From NCBI GenBank assembly GCA_964571235.1, contig CAZNAI010000003.1, positions 592,700-656,699 of the forward strand: 64,000 bases of DNA, in the 5' to 3' direction. How positions within the stretch are numbered: position 1 is the first letter of the stretch; each line of letters starts with the position of its first letter. Below, piece by piece: positions 447 through 63,871 of this stretch. Below the pieces are notes generated by a model. It saw nothing but the letters and a program-made list of their open reading frames with translations, searched no databases and had not been told where the DNA came from. A program made the position numbers and the translations under genes. The DNA is from an uncultured Ignavibacteriales bacterium (lineage in GTDB: Bacteria > Zixibacteria > MSB-5A5 > GN15 > FEB-12).

Positions 447-720
447 GGGGCAGGCAGGAAGCCTGCCGCCCACGGAACGAAACGAAGATGTCGGGTTTCT
501 CGGTGCGCCGTTTGGCGCACTCTCGGAACGCCGACCTACGAAGATTACGAGGGGGCAGACGAGGGGGTCTGCCGCCCGCGAGAATCGCGGTCAGGGGGAC
601 GCCTGACCGCGCACCAGGAAAGACGTGGTGCACGGGGACGTACACCACGCACAACCGGAAGTCGACCCTTCGACGAGCTCAGGGTGACTTGAACGGGCAG
701 GCAGGATGCCTGCCGCGCAG
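447..720. repeat. Mosaic of hairpin repeats: A (447-473), B (551-580), E (624-652), F (661-688), A (694-720)
   Basis: Each unit recurs elsewhere in the window, e.g. gggcaggcaggaagcctgccgc[cg]cac at 14211 and 22613, and gcagacgagggNgtctgccgc at 30171, 30255 and 63844. The mosaic lies between two minus-strand genes. Confidence 0.85.
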
Positions 721-732
721 GGAAAATCGTGG

Positions 733-3093
733 CTATTGTGCGGCCGAAGTATCCGGTGCCCACGAGGCGGTGATCGTTGGCCACGAGAAAGTGTGCACCA
801 CATCTTCTAAGCCGACGTCGTTGAGCGGATCGCGGGAACAACACATATTAATCGACCTGCTGTCGCCGAGAATATCCCAGACCGTGTTCATCTGTATGTA
901 GAAGTAACCCGGAGGCGTGTCGTAGATCTCCAAGGGAATGGCCGCGGACAGGTCATAAGTATCAATGCCTCCCGGCGTGTTGGTAATTGTTTCAAAGAGA
1001 TCGCGAGCCTCAGCGGCGACGACGTGGAGTCGGAGACGATTGAGGTCACCGTCGACATACGCGCTGAGCAGAAAGCCGGCAGGGTCGTTCTCCCAAAGTC
1101 CTTTGAGATTGTGGGATCCGTGCCAATCCCATTCGGTGGTGGTGGGCGGATCATTCGTATCGGTATAGTCTGCGTGGCCGCTGACAGTGGCCGTGCCGAA
1201 TGAGTTTTCCATGGCCGGGAAAATCACAGAATAGTAGTGGGGAGTCTCGTGGGGTTTGTCGCGAAAGGCGTGAATATCGGCGCGAAGGCGGGCGTCGATC
1301 ACAATTTTCCTCTCCAACGTTTCATAGTCATCTACTTTGTATGTGAAGAGTCCTTGCCAGGTGGTCAGGTTGACTACATTGCTGGTGCGTTTAGACAGTG
1401 GCGCGAGATTACTTGTTCCATCAATTTCAACAGTAACCGGCCCCACCGAACCTGCGCCGGTATTGGGGATAAAACAGGTGATCAGTTCCGGTGACCAGCT
1501 ATACACAAGCATATCAGTTCCGCCAACGAGCACTCTGCGAAGCGGCTCGCCGGGGTCAGGTCCGAATAGCCCGGTCACATACAGTGTATCGAAGTGTTCC
1601 ACGACCGCCATATACCGGATGCTCGGCGCCAGCAAACCAAAATCTCCTGCTCCTGCTGTATGCTTGAAAACAGTTTTCTTGCCGGGGGCCACCAGCGAAT
1701 CCGGGGTTGGATGGGCGTGGAGGTTTCGCTGTGACAAATCGCCGTAGATTGCCACATAGTCAAACGGTCGCTGGGGGGGAGATTCTTTGTACGACTGGTA
1801 TTCATTCGCGCCAAGTAACCGGTCGATCAGGAATCGCGCCACCAGGTTGCTGGCGTCACTGAATACGCTGTAGGTCCAGCCAAAATAGACACCGGCGTTT
1901 TTGGCTAAGACGGCATTCTTGAACGGCTGTGCAAACGGGCCGTCGCTACCACAAGCATCGATGTAGACCATTGAATTGTCAGACAGGTTTTGCCAGTAAT
2001 GAGTCACGAATCTTGAGGTGATTCCGTAGTGGGCCTGCATCACTGAGTCACCATTGGGAAGTACATCCAGAAGCGCAATCTGCACTGCAAGCCTCTTGGC
2101 CCGAAGATCGGCTCGGTAGGTTGGAACATTCGCGGCGGTGGTAATGGTGCTTGTCCAAAGGGCATAGGCGGAGTCGGTCATTGCGCCGTTAAAATACCCG
2201 GCGCCTCCGTGTGTGCTGAAGAAGAACACGCCTTCGCCATTGATGGTTCGAAGGGCCTCAACCGTTTCCTGGCCGGTGTATGATGAATACCCTCGTGCAC
2301 TTAACCAACCGGATAATGTTGACGTGATTGGCTGAAACACATTCCCGAGGGTGTTTAGGAATAGAGCATCAAGCGACTTCGGCAATCCACTCTTGGTCGC
2401 GGTCGGCAGAGCGGGAGAGAAGTACTGCGGCTCAGTCGGGGCGATCCGAATAGGAACCTCGGCCGGTTCCGGTGTGGCATGACTTTTCGTGTCGGCGGGC
2501 GCATGGTTTATCGCGGGTGGCGCCGGAAGGCGGTTGTTGGACACCATGAGTATGATGCTATCAGTGAAAATTGCCCAAACAGTACTCGGTGCGTGAATAA
2601 CCTGCGCGGTGTCAATCTCCGGCAGTCCATTTAGGTATGCGGCAATCTTGTTGTAGAAATCGGGGTCGCCGGCAAGAGAGTCGGCTAAATGAACAGTGTT
2701 GTCAATCACTGCCATGCGCACGACATCGTTCATCTCTCCGCACTGGACCATCGGGTTGAGCGAAATAAACATGTGATCGATGAGGGCAGTCAGATCGGCA
2801 ATGTCGATGAAGCCGTCGGGGGAGCCGTCGGTATTGCCTGCCTCAGGACAACAGAGCGGGTTGAGCGAAATGAACATGTGATCGATGAGGGCTGTCAGAT
2901 CTGAGATATCGACAATGCCATCGCCCGAGCAGTCGGTGTTGCCGCGAACAGTGCAACAGCCGGGATCAGCGTGGACCGGCTGGAAAACAGCCAGCAGAAT
3001 AGAAAAGAGCACAATCAATGTGAACCAAAAGATGTGTGAGAGAGCGGCCACGAAAGTCGGCCGATTCCTTACTGCAATTACAGGTGCGGACAT
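733..3093 (-). CDS. Secreted clan CD (gingipain/C25-like, caspase-fold) cysteine peptidase candidate with two N-terminal dockerin-like Ca-binding repeats
   Basis: Start ATG 3093 has GGGGAG 5 nt upstream, followed by an N-terminal TM/signal (FWFTLIVLFSILLAVFQPVHA). There are two ~41-aa repeats, CC..GNTD(C/G)S(G/P)DG(I/F)(V/I)DI(S/A)DLTALIDHMFISLNP. A His-Gly / Ala-Cys dyad context (FFFSTHGGAGY ... VYIDACGSDG) is typical of clan CD. Confidence 0.55.
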   Translation of the reverse strand: MSAPVIAVRNRPTFVAALSHIFWFTLIVLFSILLAVFQPVHADPGCCTVRGNTDCSGDGIVDISDLTALIDHMFISLNPLCCPEAGNTDGSPDGFIDIADLTALIDHMFISLNPMVQCGEMNDVVRMAVIDNTVHLADSLAGDPDFYNKIAAYLNGLPEIDTAQVIHAPSTVWAIFTDSIILMVSNNRLPAPPAINHAPADTKSHATPEPAEVPIRIAPTEPQYFSPALPTATKSGLPKSLDALFLNTLGNVFQPITSTLSGWLSARGYSSYTGQETVEALRTINGEGVFFFSTHGGAGYFNGAMTDSAYALWTSTITTAANVPTYRADLRAKRLAVQIALLDVLPNGDSVMQAHYGITSRFVTHYWQNLSDNSMVYIDACGSDGPFAQPFKNAVLAKNAGVYFGWTYSVFSDASNLVARFLIDRLLGANEYQSYKESPPQRPFDYVAIYGDLSQRNLHAHPTPDSLVAPGKKTVFKHTAGAGDFGLLAPSIRYMAVVEHFDTLYVTGLFGPDPGEPLRRVLVGGTDMLVYSWSPELITCFIPNTGAGSVGPVTVEIDGTSNLAPLSKRTSNVVNLTTWQGLFTYKVDDYETLERKIVIDARLRADIHAFRDKPHETPHYYSVIFPAMENSFGTATVSGHADYTDTNDPPTTTEWDWHGSHNLKGLWENDPAGFLLSAYVDGDLNRLRLHVVAAEARDLFETITNTPGGIDTYDLSAAIPLEIYDTPPGYFYIQMNTVWDILGDSRSINMCCSRDPLNDVGLEDVVHTFSWPTITASWAPDTSAAQ

Positions 3094-3313
3094 CTGATCT
3101 CCCCGATCGTGAATATGTGATATGCTACTTGTGTGTAGCTTTCTGTCAGAAATAGTTCGCAAGCGGACGCGTTGTCGATATTGGGGAATATAGCGCGAAA
3201 CCGGCTGAATCCAAGATAAAATTGGCCCCTATTGGCCGCGATACAGAAGTACATTTTGTATGCTCCTCCACAGGGACTTTCGCCAAGTGAACGATTCAGT
3301 TATCTTGAACGAT

Positions 3314-4096
3314 ATGACGAAGATAGATCGATTTGCAGAAGTAATCAGGGGAGAATTCCCGGACGACCGTCTGACCTTTCAGAAGTCGATTGCGACCTTT
3401 CATCCGGATTCAGCCGAGGAAGCCGCATGCCTGTTTAGGTTGGCAAACGCGCACTCTCAGCCGCTATATATTACCGGGTTCGGCAACAACATAGACCCGA
3501 TTGGCGAGCCGTTTACCAGCATGCTCACTGTGCGAACCGACCGGCTGAATGATCTGCTGGCAGTCCAGCCGGAGGATTTCTATGTCAAAGTCGGGGCGGG
3601 ATATCCGCTCAGAGAATTGAATACTGATTTGGAGCCACATGGGCTCTTCTGTCCGCTAGCCGACCTTCCGTATGTCGGGTCCATCGGCGGGGCGGTGGCG
3701 GTGAATCTGTCGGGGCAGTTGGGGGCGCATGCACTGCCAATCAAGCGGTATCTGATTCGAGCCGAGGTTGTCCTGCCAGAGGGTTCTCTCGTCACACCCG
3801 GTTCGGTTTGCTTCAAGTCAGTTTCCGGGTACGATGTGGTCAAGTTGTTCGCGCCATCATGGGGGATTCTGGGTCTGGTGGTATCGGCCACACTCAGAGT
3901 TTTGCCCATGTCGGCCAAATCGGAATACACCGGACTGAAACTCAACGCGATCGACCGCAATAATTTTCTGGCGGGACTAGATGCGCAAAATCAAGACACC
4001 GACGCAGTCTACTCGCGCAAGATCAAACAAAAGCTCGACCCGAACAATATCCTTCCCATCATTCAATCGGCCAACTTAGCCGCAGTGACCAAGTAA
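3314..4096 (+). CDS. FAD-binding (PCMH-type) oxidoreductase, GlcE-like
   Basis: FHPDSAEEAACLFRLANAHSQPLYITGFGNN followed by GGAVAVN resembles an FAD_binding_4 domain. The start was chosen at ATG 3314; the ORF track gives 3260. Confidence 0.55.
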   Translation: MTKIDRFAEVIRGEFPDDRLTFQKSIATFHPDSAEEAACLFRLANAHSQPLYITGFGNNIDPIGEPFTSMLTVRTDRLNDLLAVQPEDFYVKVGAGYPLRELNTDLEPHGLFCPLADLPYVGSIGGAVAVNLSGQLGAHALPIKRYLIRAEVVLPEGSLVTPGSVCFKSVSGYDVVKLFAPSWGILGLVVSATLRVLPMSAKSEYTGLKLNAIDRNNFLAGLDAQNQDTDAVYSRKIKQKLDPNNILPIIQSANLAAVTK

Positions 4097-4117
4097 TCCC
4101 GTAAGGCAGGTCGACTG

Positions 4118-5140
4118 ATGCACTTTGGACATTTGCCGCCAGGAGGACCGACCTCGGGAAGAGACCTAACGGCCGATCTGCGTCGGCCGGTAATCGAGTT
4201 TGCCGCCACCGATGTTGTCACTCTGCTCGATACCATGACAGTCGGAGAAGCACTCGACCGACTCAGGGGCAAAAAGCTCGGCGAAAAGATAGTCTATTTC
4301 TACGTTGTAGACGAAGCTCAGCGACTGGTCGGAGTTTTGCCGGTGCGACGCCTTCTCATGGCTCCGCTGGATGAACCGATAGCGGCGCTGATGCTGATCA
4401 ATGTCTATTCGGTGCGTGATCGGGCGACATTGCAGGAAGCATCGGAGATGATGATTCAACATCGGTTCATGGCATTGCCGGTGATTGATGAAGATGGTCG
4501 ACTCGTTGGTGTTTTTGATATTACAGTTTTTTCAGGGGAGATTGGTGACGCCGCGCATCAGCACGAGATAAACAGCGCTTTTCAGTTAGTCGGTGTGCAC
4601 GCCTCGCTGGGGCGGGAAGTCTCGTGGTGGTCGAGCTATCGCGATCGCTTTGTCTGGTTAATGGCCAATATCATCGGTGGAGGAATTTGTGCGCTGGTGG
4701 TGGCTTCACACGAACATCTCCTTGAGAAAGCCACCATGCTGGCGTTCTTCATTCCGATGATGCTCTCGGTGGCCGAGAGTGTAAGCATGCAATCTATGAC
4801 GCTCACGTTGCAAACCTCGACATCGGCAGTGTCATGGCGAATGCTCTGGCGGGCAGTGCGGCGGGAGTTACCGACCGCGTTTGGTTTGGGGATATCGAGC
4901 GCCGCAATTGTTTTCGCATTGTCGGCCCTTTGGAAAAAACACTTGCTGGCTTCGGTGTCGGTGGGATTGGCAATTATCGGTGCGGTCTTGTTGGCGTCGG
5001 CTTTAGGTGTCATTTTGCCGGCGGCAGTGCGCGCACTCAAAGCTGATCCAAAGGTCGCCTCCGGACCAATCGCGCTTGCGCTGGCCGACATTATTGCTCT
5101 ACTTTTGTTGTTTGAATTGGCTCAATCACTGTTGGGATAG
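4118..5140 (+). CDS. mgtE: MgtE-type Mg2+ transporter (CBS pair + MgtE membrane domain, no long N-domain)
   Basis: CBS-like segments are VGVLPVRRLL and ALPVIDEDGRLVGVFDI. The C-terminus has 5 hydrophobic helices with the MgtE-like GPIALALADIIALL motif. Confidence 0.7.
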   Translation: MHFGHLPPGGPTSGRDLTADLRRPVIEFAATDVVTLLDTMTVGEALDRLRGKKLGEKIVYFYVVDEAQRLVGVLPVRRLLMAPLDEPIAALMLINVYSVRDRATLQEASEMMIQHRFMALPVIDEDGRLVGVFDITVFSGEIGDAAHQHEINSAFQLVGVHASLGREVSWWSSYRDRFVWLMANIIGGGICALVVASHEHLLEKATMLAFFIPMMLSVAESVSMQSMTLTLQTSTSAVSWRMLWRAVRRELPTAFGLGISSAAIVFALSALWKKHLLASVSVGLAIIGAVLLASALGVILPAAVRALKADPKVASGPIALALADIIALLLLFELAQSLLG

Positions 5141-5147
5141 AAATCAG

Positions 5148-5525
5148 ATGAAAGCAAAAGAACATTCGATTGTCGCGGTGCTTGGTGCATCGCCCAAAGA
5201 AGACCGGTTTTCATACAAGGCGATTAAAATGCTCCGCGAGCACGGCCACTCGCCGATTCCGGTGCATCCGGCCGGTCACGATGTGTTGGGGATTCACGGA
5301 CTCAAATCGCTGGACGAAATTTCCGGGCAGGTGGATACGCTTACTATGTATGTGGGACCACAAATTTCCGACGGCGAACTCGACCGAATACTCAAACTGA
5401 AACCGCGACGGGTTATTTTCAATCCGGGCTCGGAGAACGAAGGGCTGGCCGAGAAGCTCCGTGGCGCGAGTATCGAAGTTGTCTTCGCTTGCACGCTGGT
5501 AATGTTGCAGACCGATCAGTTCTAA
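5148..5525 (+). CDS. CoA-binding domain protein (YccU/YneT-like)
   Basis: The sequence SIVAVLGASPKEDRFSYKAIKMLREHGHSPIPVHP matches the family. ATG 5148 lies right after the mgtE stop. The upstream part of the track ORF overlaps mgtE. Confidence 0.75.
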   Translation: MKAKEHSIVAVLGASPKEDRFSYKAIKMLREHGHSPIPVHPAGHDVLGIHGLKSLDEISGQVDTLTMYVGPQISDGELDRILKLKPRRVIFNPGSENEGLAEKLRGASIEVVFACTLVMLQTDQF

Positions 5526-5532
5526 TCAGCGA

Positions 5533-6237
5533 TCAATCACGCATGTGCTCCAACTTACTCATCTTGGCGCGTAGTGCAGTCGATATCGTCTCGGTCAACT
5601 CTTCCACATCGAGAAGTGCGGTGTTAACGATCAGGTCGTACCGAACAGGATCATCAATGTCGGCATTGAATTGGCGCAGGATAAACTGGCGGCGATCCGA
5701 GTCGCTTTTGGCTATATATTCTTTGGCTTGAATCGCCGCGAGGTTTCGGTACCTGACGAGATTATCGATTCGGGTGGCTACCGGTGCGACAACCCGGAGA
5801 TGAAGCCCCTGGTTTGGGCCAAGAATGAAATTTCCCCCTCGGCCCATGAGAATCACTCCACCCAGGCGGGACATCGACAAGGTCACCTGATACAAGTGCC
5901 GGAAATAATCGGAATGATCGACCATTTGTCCGGCGAAGACCCCCTCTACCAGGAGCGCCAGTTCGCTTCGGTTACGATCATCGAGCGACTCGACAATCCT
6001 CTTGACGTAACCGGAGTGCGAGCAGATGGCATCGATGGCTTCGCGGTCAACGCGCAAGTACCCGAGTTTCTGCGCCAGTCGCGAGGCCAGATATGAGCCG
6101 CGTGATCCGGCCTGACGGCTGACCGTGACGATTGGCGGAGCAAGCTTTGAGCTGGCCGCTGGCTGTTCGGTGGCAGATCGCCGCTCGGCTTCCCACTTGA
6201 GGATTTGACGATTAATGAGAGACTCAATAGAAGTCAT
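5533..6237 (-). CDS. Cytidylate kinase-like family protein
   Basis: The P-loop-like segment VTVSRQAGSRGSYLASRLAQKLGY and the overall length fit the cytidylate-kinase-like family. Confidence 0.6.
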   Translation of the reverse strand: MTSIESLINRQILKWEAERRSATEQPAASSKLAPPIVTVSRQAGSRGSYLASRLAQKLGYLRVDREAIDAICSHSGYVKRIVESLDDRNRSELALLVEGVFAGQMVDHSDYFRHLYQVTLSMSRLGGVILMGRGGNFILGPNQGLHLRVVAPVATRIDNLVRYRNLAAIQAKEYIAKSDSDRRQFILRQFNADIDDPVRYDLIVNTALLDVEELTETISTALRAKMSKLEHMRD

Positions 6238-6341
6238 GGCCCGGACTCCTTTCTTTCGCTACCACAATATATATCAAACCGGGTAATCGTGGAGAAAAAA
6301 GAAGGTGTTGGGATTGTGCGGTACGGTTACCGGGGTAGACC

Positions 6342-11549: not shown

Positions 11550-11573
11550 CGATCTGCAAGATATGATCTGTAA

Positions 11574-14041: not shown

Positions 14042-14322
14042 CCCCTCATCCGGCCTTCGGCCACCTTCTCCCAGAGGGAGAAGGATAGACGCACGCAATC
14101 ATTGATGATTTCGATTAAAATTCCCTCTCCCTCTGGGAGAGGATGTCACGAAGTGACAGGTGAGGGGTTCGTGCGCGGCAGACGCCCTCGTCTGCCCGTC
14201 CGGGCAGGAAGGGGCAGGCAGGAAGCCCGCCGCCCACAAACAAAAAAAAGCCGCGCGTACGCGCGGCTTTTGTATTCGATTGACCCTTGAAATCGTGGCG
14301 CACGAGAATGTACGCCACGCAC
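14042..14322. repeat. Hairpin-repeat mosaic between convergent priA and rplY: K hairpins (14064-14084, 14124-14159), B-rc (14171-14198), A (14211-14237), E (14294-14322)
   Basis: Sequence identity to the A, B and E copies elsewhere in the window. The K hairpins are ccttctccc-aga-gggagaagg and cctctccc-tct-gggagagg. Confidence 0.85.
14242..14271. terminator. Bidirectional Rho-independent terminator (priA / rplY)
   Basis: The sequence aaaaaaaa gccgcgc gtac gcgcggc tttt has an A8 run on one side and a T4 run on the other. Read on the minus strand it is the hairpin followed by T8. Confidence 0.8.
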
Positions 14323-16083: not shown

Positions 16084-16130
16084 AAATCGTCAGTTTCTCT
16101 CACTCTACCAAAGCGCGTTGTCGGAGCCGT

Positions 16131-16253
16131 CACGCGAAGCCCAAAGTCCAGACAAACGTCCGGCTTCAGACTCTCGGCGTGCACACAGCTCTCAATCTCA
16201 ATCGGCGTCGTTGTCGCCATCACGCGAAGCCCAAGGTCCAGACAAATGTCTGG
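16131..16253 (-). repeat. Two copies of a tRNA-trailing hairpin element (16131-16163 and 16221-16253)
   Basis: On the minus strand the copies read ccagacatttgtctggaccttgggcttcgcgtg and ccggacgtttgtctggactttgggcttcgcgtg. A third copy follows tRNA-Ser at 47750-47781. Confidence 0.8.
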
Positions 16254-17522: not shown

Positions 17523-17927
17523 GGGGGGATGATAATAGGGGGAGGGCGAGAAAGAAACTGTGCGCGAGTCCTGTCCGCCGAAGAGTGGGCATCCAGCCGC
17601 TGAATCGGGAACCGCCTGTGATTGTATTTGGCGTCTCGATCCCCGCTCTGCGTCCGCCTGCGGCGGACTTGTCGGGGATGAGATTGTAGGTGTGGCATTC
17701 CTGTGCGACGAAGACGTTCTCGCTTGCCCGTCGTTCGGAAAAGGGCTGACCGGGAGGTCTGCCGCCCACTGGCGATCTGGCTCAATGGGTCAATATCCAT
17801 AAATTCAACAGCCGTTGAAAGATGTGAGCTCCACATCAATATGAGTTGAGCCATTCGAAACTTCTCAAAATCCACGCCGTTTAAAGGATATAACAGCTCC
17901 ATAATTGGTTCTATCGAGGAGTTCGCA

Positions 17928-19547: not shown

Positions 19548-19602
19548 GAGATTGCTTCGCCGCGTCCTTCGACAAGCTCAGGAAGCCGCGTCTCGCAATG
19601 AC
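19548..19602 (-). repeat. H-family clamp repeat carrying an F-like insert
   Basis: The reverse complement reads gtcattgcgag-acgcggcttcctgagcttgtcgaaggacgcggc-gaagcaatctc. The outer arms are identical to H copies at 31156, 58751 and 39268. Confidence 0.8.
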
Positions 19603-22462: not shown

Positions 22463-22771
22463 TGTCACCCCGGCGAAGGCCGGGGTCCAGAAAGTGGAAG
22501 AAGAAGAGAAGACTGGATTCCGGCCTACGCCGGAATGACAATGTTGTAGCGCGGGTTCGTCTTTGAACCCGCCATTCGTGGCGCACAGGAATGTACGCCA
22601 CGCACATTGGGAACGGGCAGGCAGGAAGCCTGCCGCGCACGTGAAATCGCGTCTCGACTACGCTCGACGCGTCGGTGGAAAAGATGTCGAAACCGCCCTT
22701 CGAGGACTCAGGACTTCACAGGGGTTTCGACCTACGAAGAACAGTAGGGTGGGTCCTTCTTAGAACCCGCC
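22463..22771. repeat. Dense hairpin-repeat mosaic between acnA and fba: J (22463-22490, 22515-22540), C (22546-22573), E (22577-22605), A (22613-22639), G (22646-22673), C-variant (22744-22771)
   Basis: Direct sequence identity with copies of each family elsewhere in the window. Confidence 0.85.
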
Positions 22772-24320: not shown

Positions 24321-24348
24321 CGTGCGTGGTGGCCGTCCTCGTCCACCA
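24321..24348 (-). repeat. E-family hairpin (reverse orientation)
   Basis: The sequence is gtgcGTGGTGgccgtcctcgtcCACCAC; compare the copies at 624-652 and 39189-39216. Confidence 0.75.
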
Positions 24349-24444
24349 CGTTTGTTTGTCGGCGGACGGGTACGACCGTCGACCACAAAATAACTCGCGT
24401 CCCGCACTTGCTCCCCTCTCATTTCCCCCGTACTTTAGCGGGCT

Positions 24445-25508: not shown

Positions 25509-25862
25509 GGGACCCTTCGACAGGCTCAGGGTGAAGTCAGTAGGAGTGCTCAGGGTGAAGTCAGTAGGAGTGCTAAGGGTGAAGTCAAAGAGGGAAGAGT
25601 TGGAAGCTTAGACTTTGACGACAGCGAAATTCGACACGACTTCAGGCTGAGCTTGTCGAAGCCTTCTCCTTGATGACACAAAGTGCGGGAACCGTGCGAC
25701 CCCCACGGGAGTTGTAGAGAATCCTGTTCAGTTTTTGCGCAGTGTGCCGATATTGTAGACGATAGACAGAGGTCAGGTGAGGACGCCTGACGCCACGTGG
25801 TTTGTAGGTCGAAATCCCTTGTCACGCCGAAGGCGTGATCGTCCGAAGGACGAGGTTTCGAC
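25509..25862. repeat. Repeat mosaic upstream of lon: F (25509-25538), 24-bp tandem x2.5 (25527-25587), F-partial-rc (25634-25653), expanded I element (25803-25862)
   Basis: The unit cagggtgaagtcagtaggagtgct occurs in tandem. The I element is tgtaggtcgaaatccc...ggtttcgac, enclosing two small hairpins. Confidence 0.85.
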
Positions 25863-25891
25863 ATCTTTTCGCAGATGAATTGAAAGAGAAT

Positions 25892-30057: not shown

Positions 30058-30282
30058 TTGAAGAGCCCAACCTAAAAGTTGGGTTACCAAGGCCAAGAAA
30101 AGAATGATGTCAATCTTTATAGTAGGGCGGGTTCGTCTTTGAACCCGCCATGTTAGGAAAGCAAACGAATCGGGCAGACGAGGGCGTCTGCCGCGCACAG
30201 AATTGTAGGGCGGGTTCGTCTTTGAACCCGTCATCTTCGGCAAGGAAATCAAATCGGGCAGACGAGGGTGTCTGCCGCACAC
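30058..30282. repeat. Repeat mosaic upstream of sod: D-rc (30058-30092), then tandem (C+B) x2: C 30122-30149, B 30171-30198, C 30205-30232, B 30255-30282
   Basis: An ~83-bp composite unit is duplicated head to tail with several substitutions. Confidence 0.9.
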
Positions 30283-31116: not shown

Positions 31117-31215
31117 TTCGCGTCTCGACTACGCTCGACGCGTCGATCGAGGGATGTCGTTGCGAGCGAAGCGAAGCAATCTCTCTTTGTAGGTCGGGAT
31201 CCTTGTGATCCCGAC
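31117..31215. repeat. Repeat mosaic after sod: G (31117-31145), H (31156-31183), I (31188-31215)
   Basis: G is identical to 22646-22673. H shares the gtc[ag]ttgcgag...gaagcaatctc clamp. I is GTAGG followed by tcgggatc/gatcccga. Confidence 0.85.
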
Positions 31216-39188: not shown

Positions 39189-39310
39189 GTGCGTGGCGTA
39201 CAATCATGTGCGCCACCGTTCTGATACTACTATCCGGCGCACGAGGACCTACGCCGGCCACAAAGTAGAGATTGCTTCGCCGCGACGCGGACATCGCTCC
39301 TCGCAACGAC
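39189..39310. repeat. E-rc (39189-39216) and H-rc with enlarged insert (39268-39310)
   Basis: E-rc is gtgcgtggcgtacaatcatgtgcgccac. H-rc is gagattgcttc...ctcgcaacgac. Confidence 0.8.
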
Positions 39311-44914: not shown

Positions 44915-44942
44915 GAAGGGCGGGTTTGTCTTTGAACCCGCC
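44915..44942 (+). repeat. C-family hairpin after pyrF
   Basis: The sequence is gaagggcgggtttgtctttgaacccgcc. Confidence 0.8.
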
Positions 44943-46173: not shown

Positions 46174-46239
46174 CCTTGGTAACCCGACCTTTAGGTTGGG
46201 TTCTTCAAAATGGCCGGTTCAAAGCCGAACGCGCCCTAC
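46174..46239. repeat. Composite D (46174-46208) + C-rc (46212-46239)
   Basis: The same two-element composite recurs at 47432-47497. Confidence 0.85.
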
Positions 46240-46772: not shown

Positions 46773-47294
46773 ATGATTCCCGAGGGACGTAGTAACACTG
46801 ATTTCGACCTTTCTTCCATCGTCATCAAGCCGCTCTATTTCGGCCTGTTTATCAATATCCTGATTCCGACTGTGCTACTCCTTGTCTGCTACTACATCGA
46901 AACTCACGGCTCACTTCATAATCAGCTCGGGCTTGAGGCCGGCACCTATTTCTATATCTTTGCCGGCGCGGCGGTAGTCGAGGCCGGCGTGGCGCTCTGG
47001 TATCGTTTCAAACTTTTATCGCGGCCAATGGTTCGCGCGATTGGTTCTGCCGAGGCTGATATCAAAGAACAACTTTCCGCCCGTCTAAAACCGGTCTTTA
47101 TGATGGTCGCCGCGATCAGTTTCTGGGGAGTGCTCTTTTATGCTCTGACCGGGCGCTTTGAGAGCAGTCTGCTCTTTGTAGTATTCTCATTTATCGTCTT
47201 TCAGTTCATCCGCCCTCGCTACGGCTCTGTACAGAAGCTGATCGACAAACAGTTGGCCATGGCCGAGCGCGGGGAACTGTTAAGGCAGGCCTAA
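46773..47294 (+). CDS. Membrane protein, unknown function
   Basis: The call rests on four hydrophobic helices. No motif was recognised. Confidence 0.45.
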   Translation: MIPEGRSNTDFDLSSIVIKPLYFGLFINILIPTVLLLVCYYIETHGSLHNQLGLEAGTYFYIFAGAAVVEAGVALWYRFKLLSRPMVRAIGSAEADIKEQLSARLKPVFMMVAAISFWGVLFYALTGRFESSLLFVVFSFIVFQFIRPRYGSVQKLIDKQLAMAERGELLRQA

Positions 47295-47310
47295 TACAAT
47301 CTTCTTCTTC

Positions 47311-47537
47311 GTAGGGCAGGAGCCCTGCGCTCCTGCCACCTTATAGTTCTTTTCTTCGTAGGGCAGGCTCGTCTTCGAGCCTGCACTGCTTGGCAGTCCG
47401 CTGAGTTTTCAAAAACTTTGCTTCTTCTGGCCCTTGGTAACCCAACTCTTAGGTTGGGCTCTTCAAGATCGCGGGTTCAAAAACGAACCCGCTCTACACG
47501 GACATTCGACTTCACCCTGAGCTTGTCGAAGGGTCCC
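47311..47537. repeat. Repeat mosaic before tRNA-Ser: M (47311-47337, 47358-47386), D (47432-47466), C-rc (47471-47497), F-rc (47508-47537)
   Basis: The M copies are gtagggcaggagccctgcgctcctgcc and gtagggcaggctcgtcttcgagcctgcac. The other elements are identical or near-identical to copies elsewhere in the window. Confidence 0.85.
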
Positions 47538-47626
47538 AACCCGGCCGCTATCTTTTCCTTTACACCCGCCCGAAAATCCGTACATTTGGCCCTTCCGGGG
47601 CAATCCCGGATAAGACGCTTGAGATC

Positions 47627-47733: not shown

Positions 47734-47781
47734 CCTTGGGCCTTCGGCGCCAGACTGTGTCTGGACTTTGGGCCTTCGGCG
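47734..47781 (+). repeat. tRNA-trailing hairpin element (third copy) flanked by direct repeat cttgggccttcggcg
   Basis: The sequence is ccttgggccttcggcg-ccagactgtgtctgg-actttgggccttcggcg; compare 16131-16253. Confidence 0.8.
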
Positions 47782-47881
47782 TTTCGCATCAATAACTGTT
47801 TTGAGTATACTCTTCGATCATACCCCTCTTTCAATATTGGATTGAACCTTCTAACTTTGGGCGACATAGCGACCGACCAAA

Positions 47882-57622: not shown

Positions 57623-57642
57623 TTCGACACCTCTTCGCAGTT

Positions 57643-57666
57643 ATATATGCACATATGCGAATATAT
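57643..57666. promoter_or_regulatory. 24-bp near-palindrome in the acr3/HMA divergent promoter region (candidate ArsR operator)
   Basis: The sequence atatat-gca-catatg-cga-atatat has 20 of 24 positions symmetric. It lies 21 bp upstream of the acr3 start. Confidence 0.35.
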
Positions 57667-57910
57667 ATGAAAGCCGTTAACTGTCAAGTAGTTATTGCGG
57701 CGAATCTAAGTCAATTTGAGATTTCGGAGATTTATCCCAGTTTTGGAACTTAACCTGCCGATTCTGAGTTTAATGGAGTACATCAGTCCGGATTCAGAAG
57801 CAAACACGTGGTGGTCGGACGGTGGGAATGAAGTTGACCAGAAATCAAAAAATAGTATACTGAACAAGTTAACCAAGCGACGATCAAATCCTCGGAAGGA
57901 GCAAGCAGAC

Positions 57911-58549
57911 ATGCGTAAAGCAACTATCTTGATTTTGACAGCGTTGGCGTTTGGCGCCTTCGCTCTGTCACCGGTATTCGCCTGTGACAAAGACAAAGCG
58001 TCGGCGTCAACCGGCGAAGTAAAAGCCCAGATGGTGGGTGACAAGGCCTCGTGCGGCGCGAAAGCCGAAGGCGCCTCAGCCCAATTGACCGGCGACAAAG
58101 CGGCCTGCGCCGCGGCGTGCAAGAGCATGTCTCCGGCCGAGTGTGCCGCCATGTGCGGCTCGATGTCCGCTGAAGCGCTGGGCAAGCATCTCGGATACGA
58201 CGGCAAGGTTCAGCTCGTGAATATGTCGGTCAAAGGGATGACCTGCGGCGGTTGCGAAACCTCCTTGCGGGCCTCGCTTGAGAAGATGGACGGCGTCGTG
58301 AAAGTCTGTGCCATTTCCTATAAGGACAATGTTGCGCTGGTAGCTATCGATCCGGCCAAGGTGAAGAGCGAAGCTCTTACCACATTGGTGACCAACAAAG
58401 GGTACACCGCCGAGATTATTCCGGCCGTAGCCACAACTGGCACCCAGACGACCGATGCTCACAAGGGTTGCACCGCTGAGCAGAAGGCCGCTTGCGAAGC
58501 CAAGAAGGCCGCCGAGACCAAGGAAGCCTCGGACAAACAGCCCCACTAA
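57911..58549 (+). CDS. Secreted Cys-containing protein with heavy-metal-associated (HMA) domain
   Basis: GGAAGGAG lies upstream of ATG 57911. The signal peptide is MRKATILILTALAFGAFALSPVFA. The HMA motif is GMTCGGCE. Extra Cys pairs occur in ACAAACKSMSPAECAAMCGSM. Confidence 0.75.
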   Translation: MRKATILILTALAFGAFALSPVFACDKDKASASTGEVKAQMVGDKASCGAKAEGASAQLTGDKAACAAACKSMSPAECAAMCGSMSAEALGKHLGYDGKVQLVNMSVKGMTCGGCETSLRASLEKMDGVVKVCAISYKDNVALVAIDPAKVKSEALTTLVTNKGYTAEIIPAVATTGTQTTDAHKGCTAEQKAACEAKKAAETKEASDKQPH

Positions 58550-58570
58550 TACGGAATCAGCTTTTGTTAG

Positions 58571-58601
58571 CGGGACACAGCAATGTGTCCCGTTTTTTTT
58601 T
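58571..58601 (+). terminator. Rho-independent terminator after the HMA gene
   Basis: The hairpin is cgggacaca gcaa tgtgtcccg, followed by a T9 run. Confidence 0.85.
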
Positions 58602-58750
58602 GCCCCAAATCGGTCGTTTTGCACGCACCAAACGTTCTCTATATTAGAGATGATGTCGCCAATGTTGCCAGCCTGCCATTCGAAAGCACACATTAGTGGA
58701 ACGTTATTGCGAGCGCCAATCCGGCCCGATAACACAACACTCGAAAAAAC

Positions 58751-58786
58751 GTCATTGCGAGCGACGCCTCGTCGCGAAGCAATCTC
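58751..58786 (+). repeat. H-family clamp repeat with small hairpin insert
   Basis: The sequence is gtcattgcgag-cgacgcctcgtcgc-gaagcaatctc. Confidence 0.8.
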
Positions 58787-58805
58787 GCCTCGTATTCGTT
58801 CGATT

Positions 58806-59765
58806 ATGGGAGTCCTCTCGCTTCCATTTTTCTTTATCCTGGCAATAGCGATCCCCGCCCACGCCGCCAAATACGCCGGCGATCCGTTTTCACTGGGTGT
58901 CGGAGGACGCTCGCTCGGTCTCGGTGGCGCGACAGTCGCAGGGCCGTTTGATGCCTCCGCGCCGTATTGGAATCCAGCCGGCATGCTCTCACTCGATGGA
59001 CAGTATGTCCTGGCGATGCACGCCGAGACATTCGGCTCGCTCCTCAATCACGACTTTGTTTCCTACGTCGATGCCAATCCGCACGACAGCTCGCTGGTCC
59101 GCGCCTGGGGAGTCTATCTGTATTATCTGGGCGGAGGCGGTATCAAGATCACGCAACTCGATCAGTACAACCGACCGTATGTGGTCAAAGAGGAATCGCA
59201 CGGCGACTATCTTCTTGCGGGGTCAGTGGCAGGTCGATTGAGCGAAAAAGCAGATTTCGGCCTCTCTGGAAAGATCATCTATCGTGATATTGGAACCGAA
59301 ACTGGCATCGGGTTGACAATCGACGCCGGCGGTATCTACCGAATACACCCCAAAGCAACTCTCGGGTTGATGGTCAATGATATCACCACCGGGTTCATTC
59401 GATATTCGGGCAAGACCTTTGGCGCCGGCGGTAATACCGAGTCAATCTATCCCACCGTGCGGCCGTCGATCATGATTCATCACCAGTACCACGATTTTAC
59501 CGGACGCCTGTTGTTTACCGGCGATGCAAAGTTTGAATCACTAAAGCAATCGGCGCAATTGTGGGTCGGGTCGTTGTCGATGGACACTCACTACGGATTT
59601 GAAATCAACTGGCGCGAAATGGCCTTTGGCCGGGTCGGCTTTGACATCGGCCGGCTGACTCTCGGCGCCGGCGCGGCAGTTCGAAATTTCACTCTCGATC
59701 TGGCCTACTTGCACGACGCTGATTTCGACGCCACTTTTCGTGTTAGCGGCGGATATCGCTGGTAA
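58806..59765 (+). CDS. Outer-membrane beta-barrel protein, PorV/PorQ-like
   Basis: A signal peptide is followed by AGDPFSLGVGGRSLGLGGATVAGPFDASAPYWNPAGM, which resembles the PorV/PorQ N-terminal signature. The protein ends in an aromatic residue (GGYRW). Confidence 0.55.
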   Translation: MGVLSLPFFFILAIAIPAHAAKYAGDPFSLGVGGRSLGLGGATVAGPFDASAPYWNPAGMLSLDGQYVLAMHAETFGSLLNHDFVSYVDANPHDSSLVRAWGVYLYYLGGGGIKITQLDQYNRPYVVKEESHGDYLLAGSVAGRLSEKADFGLSGKIIYRDIGTETGIGLTIDAGGIYRIHPKATLGLMVNDITTGFIRYSGKTFGAGGNTESIYPTVRPSIMIHHQYHDFTGRLLFTGDAKFESLKQSAQLWVGSLSMDTHYGFEINWREMAFGRVGFDIGRLTLGAGAAVRNFTLDLAYLHDADFDATFRVSGGYRW

Positions 59766-59793
59766 AATCCGGAGATCGGAAGAAATAGACTCT

Positions 59794-60165
59794 ATGAATG
59801 ACTACTCCAAGTACAACATCAAACTCGAAATCCTCCACGGCCATCAGGAACTGATCAACATTCCGAAAATTGTCGCGGGGATAACCGAAAAGTGGTCTAA
59901 CCGGACGCTCACCAGAGTCAATGACAGTGTGGTTCGGCTGGCGGTGATCGAAGGTGAGTTCCATTGGCACAAGCACGACAATGACGACGAGTACTTCATG
60001 GTTCTGGAAGGCCGACTGTTTATCGATCTTGAAAGCCGTACGATTGAACTTGGGCCGCTTGAGGGAGTCACGATTTCCAGAGGCGTTATGCACCGCCCGT
60101 GCGCCCCACAGAAGACGGTCGTGCTACTCGTAGAAACCGCCGAAATCGTTCCGACCGGCGACTGA
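59794..60165 (+). CDS. Cupin domain protein
   Basis: GEFHWHKHDNDDEYFMVLEGRLFIDL...GVMHRP are the cupin motifs 1 and 2. Confidence 0.75.
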   Translation: MNDYSKYNIKLEILHGHQELINIPKIVAGITEKWSNRTLTRVNDSVVRLAVIEGEFHWHKHDNDDEYFMVLEGRLFIDLESRTIELGPLEGVTISRGVMHRPCAPQKTVVLLVETAEIVPTGD

Positions 60166-60178
60166 GAGTGTTGTCCGT

Positions 60179-61282
60179 TCAGTTCTCTTCCAAATCATCC
60201 CCTATTTCGTTTTTGAACTGCTTGATCAATCGCGGTGGGATCGAGTAGAGCACATACGCTCGAAACAGATAATCGCGCACCGGATCGCCACCAGCCAGAA
60301 CCGTTCGATACGAGGCCAGATCAAGGGTATTCCGAATCGAATCGGGGGAAGTGATGCCATTGTCGTACGCCGTTTTGGCTTGTGTCCATATTGTGGCAAA
60401 GAGATCGCGCACTGTGCGCAGGTAACTTGTATCGCGCATGATATCGCCATGGCCGGGGCAAATGACTTTCGGATGCAAGGCCAGCATCGTGTCAAGCTGA
60501 GTTACCCACTCATCGAAGAAGCTTCCAAACGTATATGGCATCGGCGAAACCAGTATATCCCCAGTGATCAAAATGCTGTCGGCCGGAAGCCACACATAGG
60601 CGTCGCCCGGTGTATTCGCTCTGCAATCATGGCGGATTTGAATTTCAGTATTCCCCATATGTATGGTCAATTGTTTGTCAAAAGTAAGATTGGGGATGAG
60701 CGCCGTATCGCGGCGAACATCGGCGTCATATTTCTTCAGCAGGGCAAGTAGTTTAAGGGCGAGCAGGCTGTCGGTCGCATTGAGGGCGCGGCCGCTGGGA
60801 CTCTTGCCACCGGCCAACATCTTGTTGTAGTCATCAATGTACTTTTGGTACTCTCCGTTGCGGGCTTCGTTCACCCACCCAGTCATACGTCGCGACAGAA
60901 TTTCACGGGTCTTGGTATGCGAGATGATCTGAATATCCGGGAATTCCCGTTTGTATACGAAGTTGCCGGTGTTGTGGTCGCCGTGCCAATGGGTATTCAG
61001 CAGATATTTAACCGGCTTGTCGGTCAGTTTGCGAATTTCGGCGATATTGGCCTCGGCGATAATCGGCGGCTGGTGCGAGTCGACGACGAAGACGCCGTCG
61101 TCGGTCAGAATAACAAACGAGTTGCCGTCGACCCAGTTGAGTGTCGGATCGGATCCGATGAAAGCGTAGACGTGGTCGTTGATTCGCTCCATCCGGAAGT
61201 GCTCCATCTGCTGGGCCACTACTGGTTGGGTGGCGGCGAGCGCTATGAGTATGAGCACTGCTGTTCGAATCGGATGTTTCAT
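60179..61282 (-). CDS. Secreted metallo-beta-lactamase-fold hydrolase
   Basis: A signal peptide is followed by HWHGDHNTGN (HxHxDH) and a downstream PGHGD. Confidence 0.8.
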   Translation of the reverse strand: MKHPIRTAVLILIALAATQPVVAQQMEHFRMERINDHVYAFIGSDPTLNWVDGNSFVILTDDGVFVVDSHQPPIIAEANIAEIRKLTDKPVKYLLNTHWHGDHNTGNFVYKREFPDIQIISHTKTREILSRRMTGWVNEARNGEYQKYIDDYNKMLAGGKSPSGRALNATDSLLALKLLALLKKYDADVRRDTALIPNLTFDKQLTIHMGNTEIQIRHDCRANTPGDAYVWLPADSILITGDILVSPMPYTFGSFFDEWVTQLDTMLALHPKVICPGHGDIMRDTSYLRTVRDLFATIWTQAKTAYDNGITSPDSIRNTLDLASYRTVLAGGDPVRDYLFRAYVLYSIPPRLIKQFKNEIGDDLEEN

Positions 61283-61401
61283 TTGGTGGTCCTCCCGAGT
61301 ATTTTCCTACAAAGACGGACAAAGGCGGTGTTTGTTGCAAGGCGGCCGGCGTTTGTCAATTGCGCGAGTGGCTTAGCCGCTGTAATTTCCAGTTCAACCC
61401 A

Positions 61402-61920
61402 ATGAACTTGCTTTCCCACAGACTGACTTTGGTTATGACAGCGGCGATTTCTCTTTTCCTGGCAACAGGGTGTAACCATCGAGAGAAATCCGGCGCGTTG
61501 CCTGACCCGAAATGGGAAGAGGCACATTTCAAAGCCCAGGAAGTGATCGAACTTATCAACGTACGTCGCCAGGCCACCGACCGGAGTTACTATTATCCGC
61601 GCGAGGTAGCCGATCTGGACAGCGACGGCAACTACGAAGTGATAGTCGGATGGCATCCGCAAGGCGGCCCGGACGGAACAGATCTTTTGTGGCGAGTGAT
61701 CGGCGATACGATGGTCATGAGTCCGGACTCAGCGCTATTGTGGCACGACGGTGTGCAGATGCACTTAGATTCGAATTCGCTGAATGTCAAATATCCTCTT
61801 TGGTTGCCCACGGATTCGACCTGTTGCCCCAGCAAGGAAGTACACGAGAAGTACAGAGTCTCCGGTGACAGAGTAGTTGTGCTATCACAAGACACACTCT
61901 CGAAAACGACCTCGCAATAA
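61402..61920 (+). CDS. Lipoprotein, unknown function
   Basis: The lipobox is LFLATGC. No other motif was recognised. Confidence 0.5.
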   Translation: MNLLSHRLTLVMTAAISLFLATGCNHREKSGALPDPKWEEAHFKAQEVIELINVRRQATDRSYYYPREVADLDSDGNYEVIVGWHPQGGPDGTDLLWRVIGDTMVMSPDSALLWHDGVQMHLDSNSLNVKYPLWLPTDSTCCPSKEVHEKYRVSGDRVVVLSQDTLSKTTSQ

Positions 61921-61925
61921 TCACC

Positions 61926-61951
61926 AGCCGCCCCGGAGGCGGGGCGGCTTT
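61926..61951. terminator. Hairpin between convergent genes (terminator-like, weak T-run)
   Basis: The hairpin is agccgcccc ggaggc ggggcggct, followed by ttt. Confidence 0.45.
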
Positions 61952-61976
61952 CCCTGAGGTGCTATTTCTCTAATCG

Positions 61977-62342
61977 TTAGAGTGCAGTCTTCGATGCCGA
62001 GGACGGCTGTGCGCACGACCGTGGGCATTTCGACATGTCGCAGTCGCCGCATGGACCTCCCTTGCAATCGGAAGGATCGCACGGCACACAGACTTTGCCG
62101 TTGCACTGCGCTATCGTAGTGCTCTTTCCGGTCTGAACCGACACTGCTTTGGCGCTGGCAGTACGGGTGGTAGCAGTGGTTGCCGTGGCAGAGGTCGCCG
62201 AGGTCTTGCCGGCGTCGGCCGACACTTTGCAAGCGGTTGTCGACGACACACAGCACTGGCCGCCGGCAAATGCAGAGCCGGCAAAGGCGATCGCGACTAC
62301 AAACGCGACCACCACAAATAGGGGCAAAGCAAATTTCTTCAT
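61977..62342 (-). CDS. Small secreted Cys-rich, Thr/Ser/Ala-rich protein
   Basis: The signal peptide is MKKFALPLFVVVAFVVAIAFAGSAFA. The mature part has 11 Cys, including the cluster CNGKVCVPCDPSDCKGGPCGDCDMSKCPRSC. Confidence 0.6.
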   Translation of the reverse strand: MKKFALPLFVVVAFVVAIAFAGSAFAGGQCCVSSTTACKVSADAGKTSATSATATTATTRTASAKAVSVQTGKSTTIAQCNGKVCVPCDPSDCKGGPCGDCDMSKCPRSCAQPSSASKTAL

Positions 62343-62415
62343 ACTGTTCTCCTAAAGAGTTTTCAAATTTGAGTTTACGTAACCTGGCCGCTGATCAAGG
62401 CGGCAAAGCCGATTC

Positions 62416-62991
62416 TCAAATCCGAAGAACAGTAATCGCGATGAGCGGATGCACCCCCCAGGGGGGATCGGGATTGGTTGCTATGAATTGTTGAGGATCT
62501 TCTGGGAGCTGAGTGAATCGATCGGTCGAGGTCAAGTTTGCGACCGAATGATTTGGTGCCAGATTCAATCGAGTCTGAGTCTCGCCCCAGAACGGATGAA
62601 CTAAAATACAGCAGGGAAGATTTTGCGACTGCTTCTCACAGATGAACTGAAAGCAGACAGGGCGGGTGTCGGTGACACCGCAATCGGTGGAGCCGGTGCA
62701 GGATTTTCTGCAGTCGGAATTAGAATCTGTGCACGGTCTGTCCGACCCGCAGGTAGTAACACAATCCACCGGATATTCCGAGCATGAAGCGGCCATCGTT
62801 TCCAGGCACATCGCTCGGTTAATCACCCAGTATTCAGAGTTGTTCTGCTGGGCGACGACAAATGCCAGGATCAGGCCGATGATTGCAATTGAACGGGTCA
62901 CGAATCCTCTCCCTATCTGGTGCTTGTACGCAGGATGACCGACGGAGTTCCCGTGGCTATTTCGAATCTTCAACTTTGACTTTGCGGCCAT
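62416..62991 (-). CDS. Candidate membrane-anchored Cys-rich protein
   Basis: ATG 62991 lies within the 370-aa track ORF. One TM segment ([13 protein letters not shown]) is followed by 13 Cys ([44 protein letters not shown]...). Only this part does not overlap uppP. Confidence 0.4.
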
Positions 62992-63010
62992 ATCCCGCAA
63001 TCTTGGCGCG

Positions 63011-63835
63011 ATGGATATTCTCCTATTTACTAAAGCTCTCATCATGGGAATTGTCGAGGGGCTGACGGAATTCTTGCCAATCTCGTCGACCGGGCATTTG
63101 ATCATCACCGGCGACCTCTTGAATTTTCTTGAGCGCGAGCAACGCGATCTGTTCGAGATATTCATCCAGCTTGGCGCAATTCTCGCGGTTTGCTGGGAGT
63201 ATCGCCGGAAACTAATCCACGCGGTCGCGGCGGTGGCGAGCGAAGAGAAGTCGCGGCAATTCTGGCTTAATCTGATCATCGCGTTCATTCCGGCGGCACT
63301 CTTGGGATTACTGTTTTCCAAAGCGATCAAGGCATACCTATTCTCTCCAGTGCCGGTGGCGGCGGCGTTTATTGTTGGCGGGCTGGCGATCTTGTGGGCG
63401 GAACGCCGCAAGCACACGGTGACTGTGGCCGAGGTCGACGCGATGGGGTGGCGCTCTGCGCTCAAGATCGGGTTGGCGCAGTGCTTCGCGCTAATACCGG
63501 GAACTTCGCGCTCGGGAGCAACGATCATCGGCGGACTTCTCTTCGGGCTCTCGCGCCAAGCGGCAACCGAGTTTTCGTTCTTCTTGGCTATCCCGACACT
63601 AACAGCGGCGGCGCTTTATGATCTTTACAAGCATCATGAACTTTTAACCGCCGACCTTTCGAGTCTGTTGGCCGTCGGGTTTGTCGCGTCGTTCGTCTTT
63701 GCGCTACTGGCGGTGCGCGGGCTGGTTCGATATATCTCAAAGCACGACTTTGTCGTCTTTGCCTGGTACCGGATTGCGTTCGGGGTGGTCGTACTATTGA
63801 CCGCGTATTTGGGTTGGGTGAAGTGGGCTGAGTGA
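63011..63835 (+). CDS. uppP: Undecaprenyl-diphosphate phosphatase
   Basis: [17 protein letters not shown] and [10 protein letters not shown] are present. Confidence 0.93.
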
Positions 63836-63843
63836 GCAATTAG

Positions 63844-63871
63844 CGGGCAGACGAGGGCGTCTGCCGCGCAC
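63844..63871 (+). repeat. B-family hairpin after uppP
   Basis: cgggcagacgagggcgtctgccgcgcac is identical to the copy at 30171-30198. Confidence 0.85.

Follow-up and report, generated by a model that had tools for sequence, protein, structure and literature searches.

A dense, multi-family system of REP/BIME-like repeats in the intergenic gaps of a Zixibacteria genome region

The 64,000-nt stretch of contig CAZNAI010000003.1 analyzed here (hereafter the window) carries a real and dense multi-family system of short repeats that resemble repetitive extragenic palindromic (REP) sequences and bacterial interspersed mosaic elements (BIMEs), and that belong to the known GTAG and CGTC classes. Taken as a whole, the data are best explained by colonization of the gaps of a Zixibacteria housekeeping stretch by about 15 families of tagged REPs, of which at least C, I and M would be mobilized by REP-associated tyrosine transposases (RAYTs), an account that we consider highly probable. 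An initial inspection of the nucleotide sequence (hereafter the sequence-only reading) had proposed a REP/BIME-like system, and this interpretation holds: the tagged elements are located outside genes and mostly downstream of them, with stems preserved through compensatory change and with copies arranged in head-out dimers and clusters. Our catalog comprises 47 elements with a total of 1404 bp, assigned to families denoted by letters. The underlying biology has already been described in other phyla; the stem sequences are new here.

Every repeat copy listed in the sequence-only reading was located at its stated position, and unbiased repeat finding in the window recovered the same families. 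The consensus of family C, allowing up to 3 mismatches, matched the window 6 times, compared to 0.00 in 100 shuffles, and a pattern describing families A and B likewise yielded 6 matches versus 0.00 in shuffles. Perfect hairpins with a stem of at least 7 bp were fivefold denser in non-coding than in coding DNA (3.45 versus 0.66 per kb). When both strands of the window were scanned, with filters off, using a covariance model derived from 85 C-type sequences, only intergenic clusters were matched, while among the Rfam covariance models only two tRNAs reached the gathering score in the window.

All 47 cataloged elements lie outside coding sequence, consistent with the earlier statement that no copy falls within a confidently called gene. 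The H copy at 58751 overlaps a long open reading frame (ORF), the codon-position GC of which is wrong upstream of 58806; the real gene, which opens with a signal peptide, begins only there, and this copy is therefore intergenic. Similarly, the C copy at 46212 is positioned 5' of the true deaminase start, with the deaminase domain and the homology to the related locus L005 both beginning downstream. The long open frames 33-692 and 58455-58805 cross repeat clusters, show atypical codon-position GC, and are likely to be mis-called as genes. Most clusters in the window follow stop codons, where the adjoining genes run in the same direction or converge; the exceptions are 17744 and 46178-46239, which lie between divergent genes, and 58751, which lies in a 5' leader. 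The window genes examined are all housekeeping genes (including priA, L25, prs, acnA, fba, ychF, lon, sodA, secA, rsgA, pyrD, pyrF, ppa, tadA-like and bacA).

The copies are neither confined to this contig nor artifacts of its assembly. Short-read contigs of the same sample do end exactly inside two clusters, at 30173 and 31156, as might be cited in favor of an artifact, but such ends are expected, because breaks at repeats are the normal outcome of real multi-copy sequence. Moreover, the same families recur in independent NCBI, JGI, ENA and Logan assemblies. The related proposal that the repeats are miniature inverted-repeat transposable elements of a DDE-type insertion sequence is countered by the units themselves, which are single 25-30-nt hairpins without terminal inverted repeats, and by the lack of any transposase in the window. 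We regard either form of this explanation as exceedingly improbable.

Concerning the lineage, SecA of the window is 74-89% identical to proteins named Zixibacteria. The core of family C occurs in 17 and 10 copies in two metagenome-assembled genomes (MAGs; loci L003-L033; CAYVWS... and JBGAWZ...) labeled Ignavibacteriales and Zixibacteria, which between them also contain several of families A, B, E, F, I and M. The two MAGs are syntenic with each other, at 72-86% protein identity, and with the window, at 55-94%; they therefore represent one lineage with inconsistent labels, at least one of which is wrong, and a sharing of the families between phyla was rejected on this ground. The exact C 28-mer had no match in JGI metagenome contigs. 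A degenerate C pattern was found on at least 120 metagenome contigs, some of which are syntenic with the window at 54-71% identity. Lone matches to the C core in Desulfomicrobium, Nonomuraea, Treponema and others lacked the GTAGG head and were dismissed as chance.

The families are distinguished by the tag that precedes the stem. In C, M and I, an unpaired GTAG stands immediately 5' of a perfect 8-10 bp stem, and D is tagged with GTAA. For A, B and E, the sequence-only reading had placed the head on the opposite strand, which is borne out by a tail, GCSCAC, that is conserved in more than 40 copies on many contigs; read on that strand, these families start with a 5' GTGG or GTGC tag, followed by GC and the stem, a build that is shared by family N. 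Directly 5' of 609 intergenic hairpins, the top tetranucleotides were GTAG (25.8-fold enriched, a value that is inflated because the data set was fetched via C-type repeats), GTGG (8-fold) and TGTC (6-fold). Folding of C, M, I, A, B, E and D gave z-scores of -2.9 to -6.2 relative to shuffled sequence, while F and G folded no better than shuffled sequence (z = -0.32 and +0.24). Of the initial claim of at least ten GC-rich hairpin families, the families proved real, and F and G are not stable hairpins; the list was also incomplete, missing N, the long form of I (487, 22683), a TGTC-tagged REP (22514), P (22467) and Q (14064, 14123).

Stem structure appears to be under selection, as had been proposed. 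Across 85 distinct C-type sequences, selected on sequence similarity alone, pairing was retained in 90.9% of stem cells, and both-side changes were present in 9 of 10 pairs (64 cells), a value reached by 0 of 500 shuffles. When the stem partner was slid by 1-3 columns, pairing fell to 27-55%. Compensatory variants are also evident in the stems of A and B (ACG/CGT, ATG/CAT and GGC/GCC), and the window copies of E alternate GTGGCG/CGCCAC with GTGGTG/CACCAC, in line with the initial description.

Head-out pairs of elements show length peaks at 60-64 and 70-81 nt, and their arms mostly come from different families. In the window (strands in brackets), such dimers are formed by the C consensus copy at 30122-30149 (+) with B at 30173-30198 (-), spanning 77 nt; by C at 30205-30232 (+) with B at 30257-30282 (-), spanning 78 nt; by C at 22546-22573 (+) with E at 22578-22605 (-), spanning 60 nt; and by B at 14171-14196 (+) with A at 14213-14237 (-), spanning 67 nt. 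The first two follow one another as a BIME-like tandem array (30122-30282; C+ B- C+ B-) with a period of 83-84 nt, of which the C at 30205 opens the second unit. The cluster at 449-720, with six units in a single orientation, does not fit BIME alternation.

Comparison with related genomes indicates turnover of individual sites. In the interval that runs from the end of the gene stopping at 47294 to the conserved upstream region of a tRNA-Ser, the window has a 245-bp cluster of five elements (M, M, D, C, F; 47295-47540), compared to 9 bp in L005, and the D+C pair at 46178-46239 is present in both. L031 and L032 differ at one gene end, where only one of the two genomes has A and E in addition to C, and at a second site, where the two REPs are distinguished by compensating changes in the stem.

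The sequence-only reading had recognized the GTAGG head-plus-palindrome layout of RAYT-mobilized elements in C, I and M, had seen no transposase in the window, and had left the mobilizing activity open. A RAYT search and examination of the window genes likewise revealed no transposase of any kind, and the first RAYT search was negative for both the window and about 230 kb of genome loci. On metagenome contigs, however, four ORFs match E. coli RayT (phmmer, 2e-31 to 1e-07). These ORFs pass the Pfam Y1_Tnp model (35.1 bits, cut-off 23), align over their full length with E. coli TnpArep (PDB 4ER8, E=1.6e-26) and keep the HUH and Tyr motifs (HTH and DYIHYNPVKH aligned with 4ER8). Each of the four is bracketed by C-type repeats: the L148 gene has one copy upstream in gene orientation and one inverted copy directly past its stop, and the L090 gene has two copies upstream and four downstream. 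A protein search returned 1301 RAYT homologues, several of them named Zixibacteria, of which about 20 loci were inspected, and at every further locus GTAG repeats adjoin the gene. C-type variants flank the RAYTs of L158, L160, L162, L164, L165 and L167; the flanking C-type REPs are inverted at L148, L090, L160, L164 and L165, as are the I-type flanks at L174 and the M-type flanks at L176 and L173. Because inverted copies flank these loci, the clade possesses a dedicated RAYT paralogue for each of families C, I and M, which substantiates the proposed layout and answers the question of the mobilizing activity at clade level, for these three families only. One RAYT-bearing genome, represented by the Ga0224509 contigs, encodes a SecA that is 74% identical to that of the window and named Zixibacteria.

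Two further features of the RAYT loci were observed. At most of them, a palindrome, CTGACAnnnnnTGTCAG, lies between the upstream REP and the RAYT start, 20-60 nt 5' of the start codon (L148, L158, L162, L164, L165, L167, L160 and L090, with L160 having one half only, CTGACG...CTGTCAC); it looks like an operator or promoter element. At L173 (about 1465-1500), the TAG of the GTAG tag of the REP upstream of the RAYT provides the stop codon of the preceding pseudouridine synthase gene. A GTAG-derived stop codon has been described for other species in the literature.

By analogy with these relatives, C, I and M in the window would be non-autonomous elements. They would be cut and re-joined, in the form of folded single-stranded DNA, by a TnpArep-like HUH/Y1 RAYT whose gene lies beyond the window; this enzyme would recognize the hairpin together with the tag, with the tag guiding the choice of the cleavage site. 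More tentatively, A, B, N and E might follow the same route with an altered guide tetranucleotide.

Several points weigh against this account. The cognate RAYTs are known from relatives and not from the window's own genome, and no RAYT was found in about 150 kb from the two closest MAGs. The RAYT-bearing contigs are from relatives that share only 54-74% protein identity, and 1-3 bases separate their C variants from those of the window. Among the approximately 20 RAYT loci, none is flanked by A, B, N, E, D, H or F. In addition, the loci used for the counts had been selected for containing C-type repeats, so that these counts do not represent a neutral genome sample, and the gene calls within them were made with our own simple caller. 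With this caller, 2 of 224 C copies lay inside called ORFs over 1.09 Mb of REP-containing loci that are 80% coding; three repeat copies inside its ORFs (L050 4413-4440, L080 10417-10444 and L083 1384-1408) may be either real intragenic REPs or the result of false gene calls.

The restriction of RAYT flanks to GTAG-type repeats, which extends to divergent RAYT homologues, none of which has A/B/E flanks, raises an alternative: RAYTs may act on C, I and M only, with A, B, N, E, H and F spread or maintained by a different agent. Published CGTC repeats have no transposase either (PMC3733652), and the distribution of H and F points in the same direction. A Novosphingobium chromid contains at least 40 matches to H with 27/27 nt identity, arranged there as inverted CGTC...CCA dimers, and H is also matched in Methylosinus, Methylobacterium and cyanobacteria. 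Matches to F of 24/24 nt are present several times per replicon in sphingomonads, Comamonas, Sinorhizobium and one cyanobacterium; in Novosphingobium (L180, L181: Novosphingobium resinovorum pSA1), F forms an inverted pair with the same two stem subtypes as in the window. The plasmid record with F/H matches is almost unannotated, so a lack of annotation there is uninformative. Lineage-specific co-evolution with a RAYT fits poorly with H and F recurring nearly unchanged across phyla. On the other hand, A and B share the build of C, with the tag followed by the stem and a pyrimidine-rich 5' flank on the tag strand, and they replace the second arm in head-out dimers of like size (C-B, 77-78 nt; C-C' dimers in the MAGs, 79-81 nt). 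Published assays of one RAYT (PMC8266576) assign the tetranucleotide the role of a guide, with cleavage shifting when it is changed to GTGG or GTAC, and at least one enzyme accepts GTGG in vitro. Only about 20 of the 1301 RAYT homologues were inspected. On balance, we find a restriction of RAYT activity to C, I and M somewhat doubtful and prefer to view A, B, N and E as putative RAYT substrates with an altered guide.

A more specific proposal, which we consider quite improbable, is that part of the repeat set is not RAYT cargo and that a shared trans-acting factor or an unrecognized mobilizing enzyme reads the loop of F. Across 38 copies of F, the 15-nt loop CTTCGACARGCTCAG is conserved on a short flanking stem of 2-4 bp, and this stem covaries (cACC/GGTg with cAGG/CCTg). 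The placement of CTTCGACARGCTCAG on covarying stems and also in the apices of H, I and M, together with the near base-for-base recurrence of F and H in Zixibacteria, Alpha- and Betaproteobacteria and cyanobacteria, would point to such a reader. High similarity of CGTC repeats across phyla and the lack of a transposase have already been reported (PMC3733652); for F, our literature search found no description, and searching its sequence gave only unrelated primer matches. If true, the F-loop reader would bear on the question of what spreads transposase-less REPs.

The position of the repeats at gene ends also allows for the possibility that the hairpins are host-selected signals, i.e., terminators, mRNA 3' stabilizers or protein-binding sites, that have spread by selection rather than by a transposase. 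In support, the 224 C copies are over-represented between convergent genes and under-represented between divergent ones (54 convergent, 92 same-direction and 18 divergent intergenic regions), the C stem is perfectly conserved at orthologous sites despite diverging flanks, C has T-rich 3' flanks in the related MAGs, and a few copies are terminator-like by score. Terminator-like sites were nevertheless not enriched (25 versus 20.5 +/- 5.4 expected), most REPs in the window are without a T run, and orientation relative to transcription is random (48:44). A reading as intrinsic terminators was rejected on the basis of the missing enrichment and random orientation. More generally, function alone leaves identical 28-mers at unrelated loci, a conserved unpaired tag and inverted RAYT-flanking copies unexplained, and we therefore judge it an unlikely origin of the system. 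A role as host signal could coexist with mobilization, and secondary roles such as mRNA 3'-end stabilization are possible.

The closest known counterparts are the GTAG REPs and REPtrons (Di Nocera et al. 2013, PMC3733652; Nunvar et al. 2010, PMC2817692), with which the window families share an unpaired GTAG tag (with GTGG and GTRG variants) next to a 6-13 bp stem, complementary changes between subfamilies, several families per genome, head-out dimers with 20-100 bp spacers including heterodimers and hybrid dimers, and a location between same-direction or convergent genes; each family's RAYT is likewise flanked by its own REPs. The coexistence of so many families had been called unusual in itself, a view that is not sustained, since many families, hybrid dimers and family-specific RAYTs have been described before (PMC3733652). 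About 15 families in 64 kb is nonetheless at the high end, the GTGC tag is not among the described variants, and Zixibacteria are absent from the eight phyla surveyed in that study (PMC3733652); our literature search found no paper linking Zixibacteria to REPs. As in Stenotrophomonas maltophilia SMAG repeats, several GTAG families and inter-family hybrid dimers coexist, but in another phylum, with other sequences and with more tag types side by side.

With the E. coli REP/BIME system (PDB 4ER8; PMC3479197, PMC8266576), there is a common full-length RAYT homologue, the tag-plus-hairpin build and clusters of alternating orientation, as at 30122-30282. In contrast, the stems here are perfect, whereas E. 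coli REPs need a bulge, and dimer partners come from different families (C with B or E). The REPIN-RAYT system of Pseudomonas (Bertels and Rainey 2011, PMC3116915; PMC5581495) similarly features inverted REP doublets of about 70-80 nt and a RAYT flanked by the most abundant short repeats, but the arms here are usually non-complementary and would thus fold separately, not as one long hairpin. Finally, the CGTC REPs (Neisseria dRS3, Rickettsia RPE-4/6 and sphingomonad repeats; PMC3733652) share with the window the features of the element at 22514-22540, the lack of an associated transposase and the 27/27 nt match between H and the Novosphingobium CGTC repeat. H departs from them by ending in CTC rather than CCA and by an apex with variable inner hairpins or an F module.

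The remaining elements of the window are as follows. Besides the dimer arms described above, family C is represented by a variant with the stem GGTGGGTCC/AGAACCCGCC at 22744-22771 (+), a copy with a GAAG tag between convergent genes at 44915-44942 (+), a degenerate copy at 46212-46239 (-) and a copy at 47470-47497 (-). Both M elements are on the same strand, at 47311-47337 (+; GTAGGGCAGGAGC...GCTCCTGCC) and 47358-47385 (+; GTAGGGCAGGCTCG...CGAGCCTGC). D, a GTAA-tagged hairpin (GGTAACCCAAC...GTTGGG), occurs at 30058-30088 (-), at 46178-46208 (+), where the D+C pair is retained at the orthologous site of L005, and at 47436-47466 (+). Family I includes a short GTAG-tagged REP at 31189-31215 (+) and a long form, the outer stem of which (GTAGGTCGAAACC/GGTTTCGAC) encloses other hairpins or an F-like module: at 487-539 (-; GTAGGTCGG...CCCGACATC) the inner hairpin is GTGCGCC/GGCGCAC, at 22683-22735 (-) the loop holds an F-like insert, and at 25804-25865 (+), the I previously listed at 25803, there are two inner hairpins in a 62-nt composite.

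Among the GTGG/GTGC-tagged families, A is found at 449-473 (-; GTGG-tagged, GTGGGC GGCAGGC ttcct GCCTGCC), at 696-720 (-; degraded tag CTGCGC) and at 22616-22640 (-; GTGC-tagged), the copy at 14213 being GTGG-tagged. B, which is GTGC-tagged at 14171, has a degenerate tag (GCGGGC) at 554-579 (-), is itself degenerate in the divergent intergenic region at 17744-17769 (-), and lies 11 nt past the bacA stop at 63846-63871 (-). N comprises a GTGC-tagged REP at 589-614 (-; GTGCGC GGTCAGG...CCTGACC) and a variant at 25771-25796 (-; GTGGCGTCAGG...CCTGACC). E copies with a GTGC tag are located at 625-652 (-; stem variant GTGGTG/CACCAC) and 14295-14322 (-), followed by a variant with GTGGTGG/CCACCAC at 24322-24349 (+) and a copy at 39189-39216 (+).

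In the CGTC class, the element at 22514-22540 (-; TGTC ATTCCGGC gtag GCCGGAAT CCA) matches the published definition, which calls for a stem of 8-9 bp and a loop of 4-5 nt, in all four features: it is tagged with TGTC, its 8-bp stem begins with AT and encloses a loop of 4 nt, and it ends in CCA. H (GTCRTTGCGAG...GAAGCAATCTC) has constant outer arms and a variable inner hairpin; it shares the tag and the AT start, its stem is imperfect and its tail is CTC, and it is a member of the CGTC/TGTC-tagged class. H occurs as a GTC-tagged copy with the F loop module inside its apex at 19548-19602 (-), as a short form at 31156-31183 (+; tGTCGTTGCGAGCGAAGCGAAGCAATCTC), with a variable inner hairpin at 39268-39310 (-), and at 58751-58786 (+), 20 nt 5' of the true gene start. 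F is present at 661-690 (+), with a conserved loop CTTCGACGAGCTCAG and the stem AAGTCgACC/GGTGACTT, at 25509-25538 (+), with its 3' part in tandem as far as 25590, at 25637-25665 (-), where a copy of the AGG/CCT stem subtype is opposite in orientation to that at 25509, and at 47508-47537 (-). The tandem at 25524-25590 repeats this 3' part, GCTCAGGGTGAAGTCAGTAGGAGT, in two exact 24-nt units and a partial third. F modules or small hairpins are nested in H-, I- and M-type apices (19548-19602, 22683-22735 and 25804-25865; L054, L084, L103), as if hairpin loops were insertion sites. The weakly folding repeat G (CGCGTCTCGACTACGCTCGACGCG) is found at 22648-22671 (+) and 31119-31142 (+). Unstranded elements are the hairpin P at 22467-22486 (ACCCCGGC gaag GCCGGGGT), directly 3' of the acnA stop, and the palindromes Q at 14064-14084 (CCTTCTCCC aga GGGAGAAGG) and 14123-14142 (CCCTCTCCC tct GGGAGAGG).

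Other hairpins accompany gene ends in the window. A separate repeat, consisting of a hairpin, CCAGACnnnnGTCTGG, followed by ACTTTGGGCCTTCGGCG, is found in 1-2 tandem units 3' of both tRNA genes, at 16115-16253 (-) after tRNA-Gln and at 47740-47790 after tRNA-Ser; it is conserved after tRNA-Ser in L005 (about 1300-1370) and may be a signal for termination or for 3' processing of the tRNA. Two classical intrinsic terminators do not belong to the REP families: one at 14246-14271, where priA and L25 converge, is a two-way hairpin (AAAAGCCGCGC gtac GCGCGGCTTTT), and the other, at 58568-58600, lies 3' of an HMA-domain gene. Within an 809-aa ORF (733-3162) without a Pfam or NCBIfam match, 2752-2959 is a tandem repeat with units of 103-105 nt and 79% identity.

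Together, these data add Zixibacteria, a candidate phylum represented solely by metagenomes, to the lineages with a REP/RAYT partnership and show GTAG-, GTGG/GTGC- and CGTC-tagged repeats side by side in a single small region. In practice, the repeats break short-read assemblies of this lineage and give rise to spurious ORFs, such as 33-692 and 58455-58805, and they could be used to mark the lineage. With its several coexisting tag variants, this lineage lends itself to testing whether the tetranucleotide guides the choice of cleavage site.

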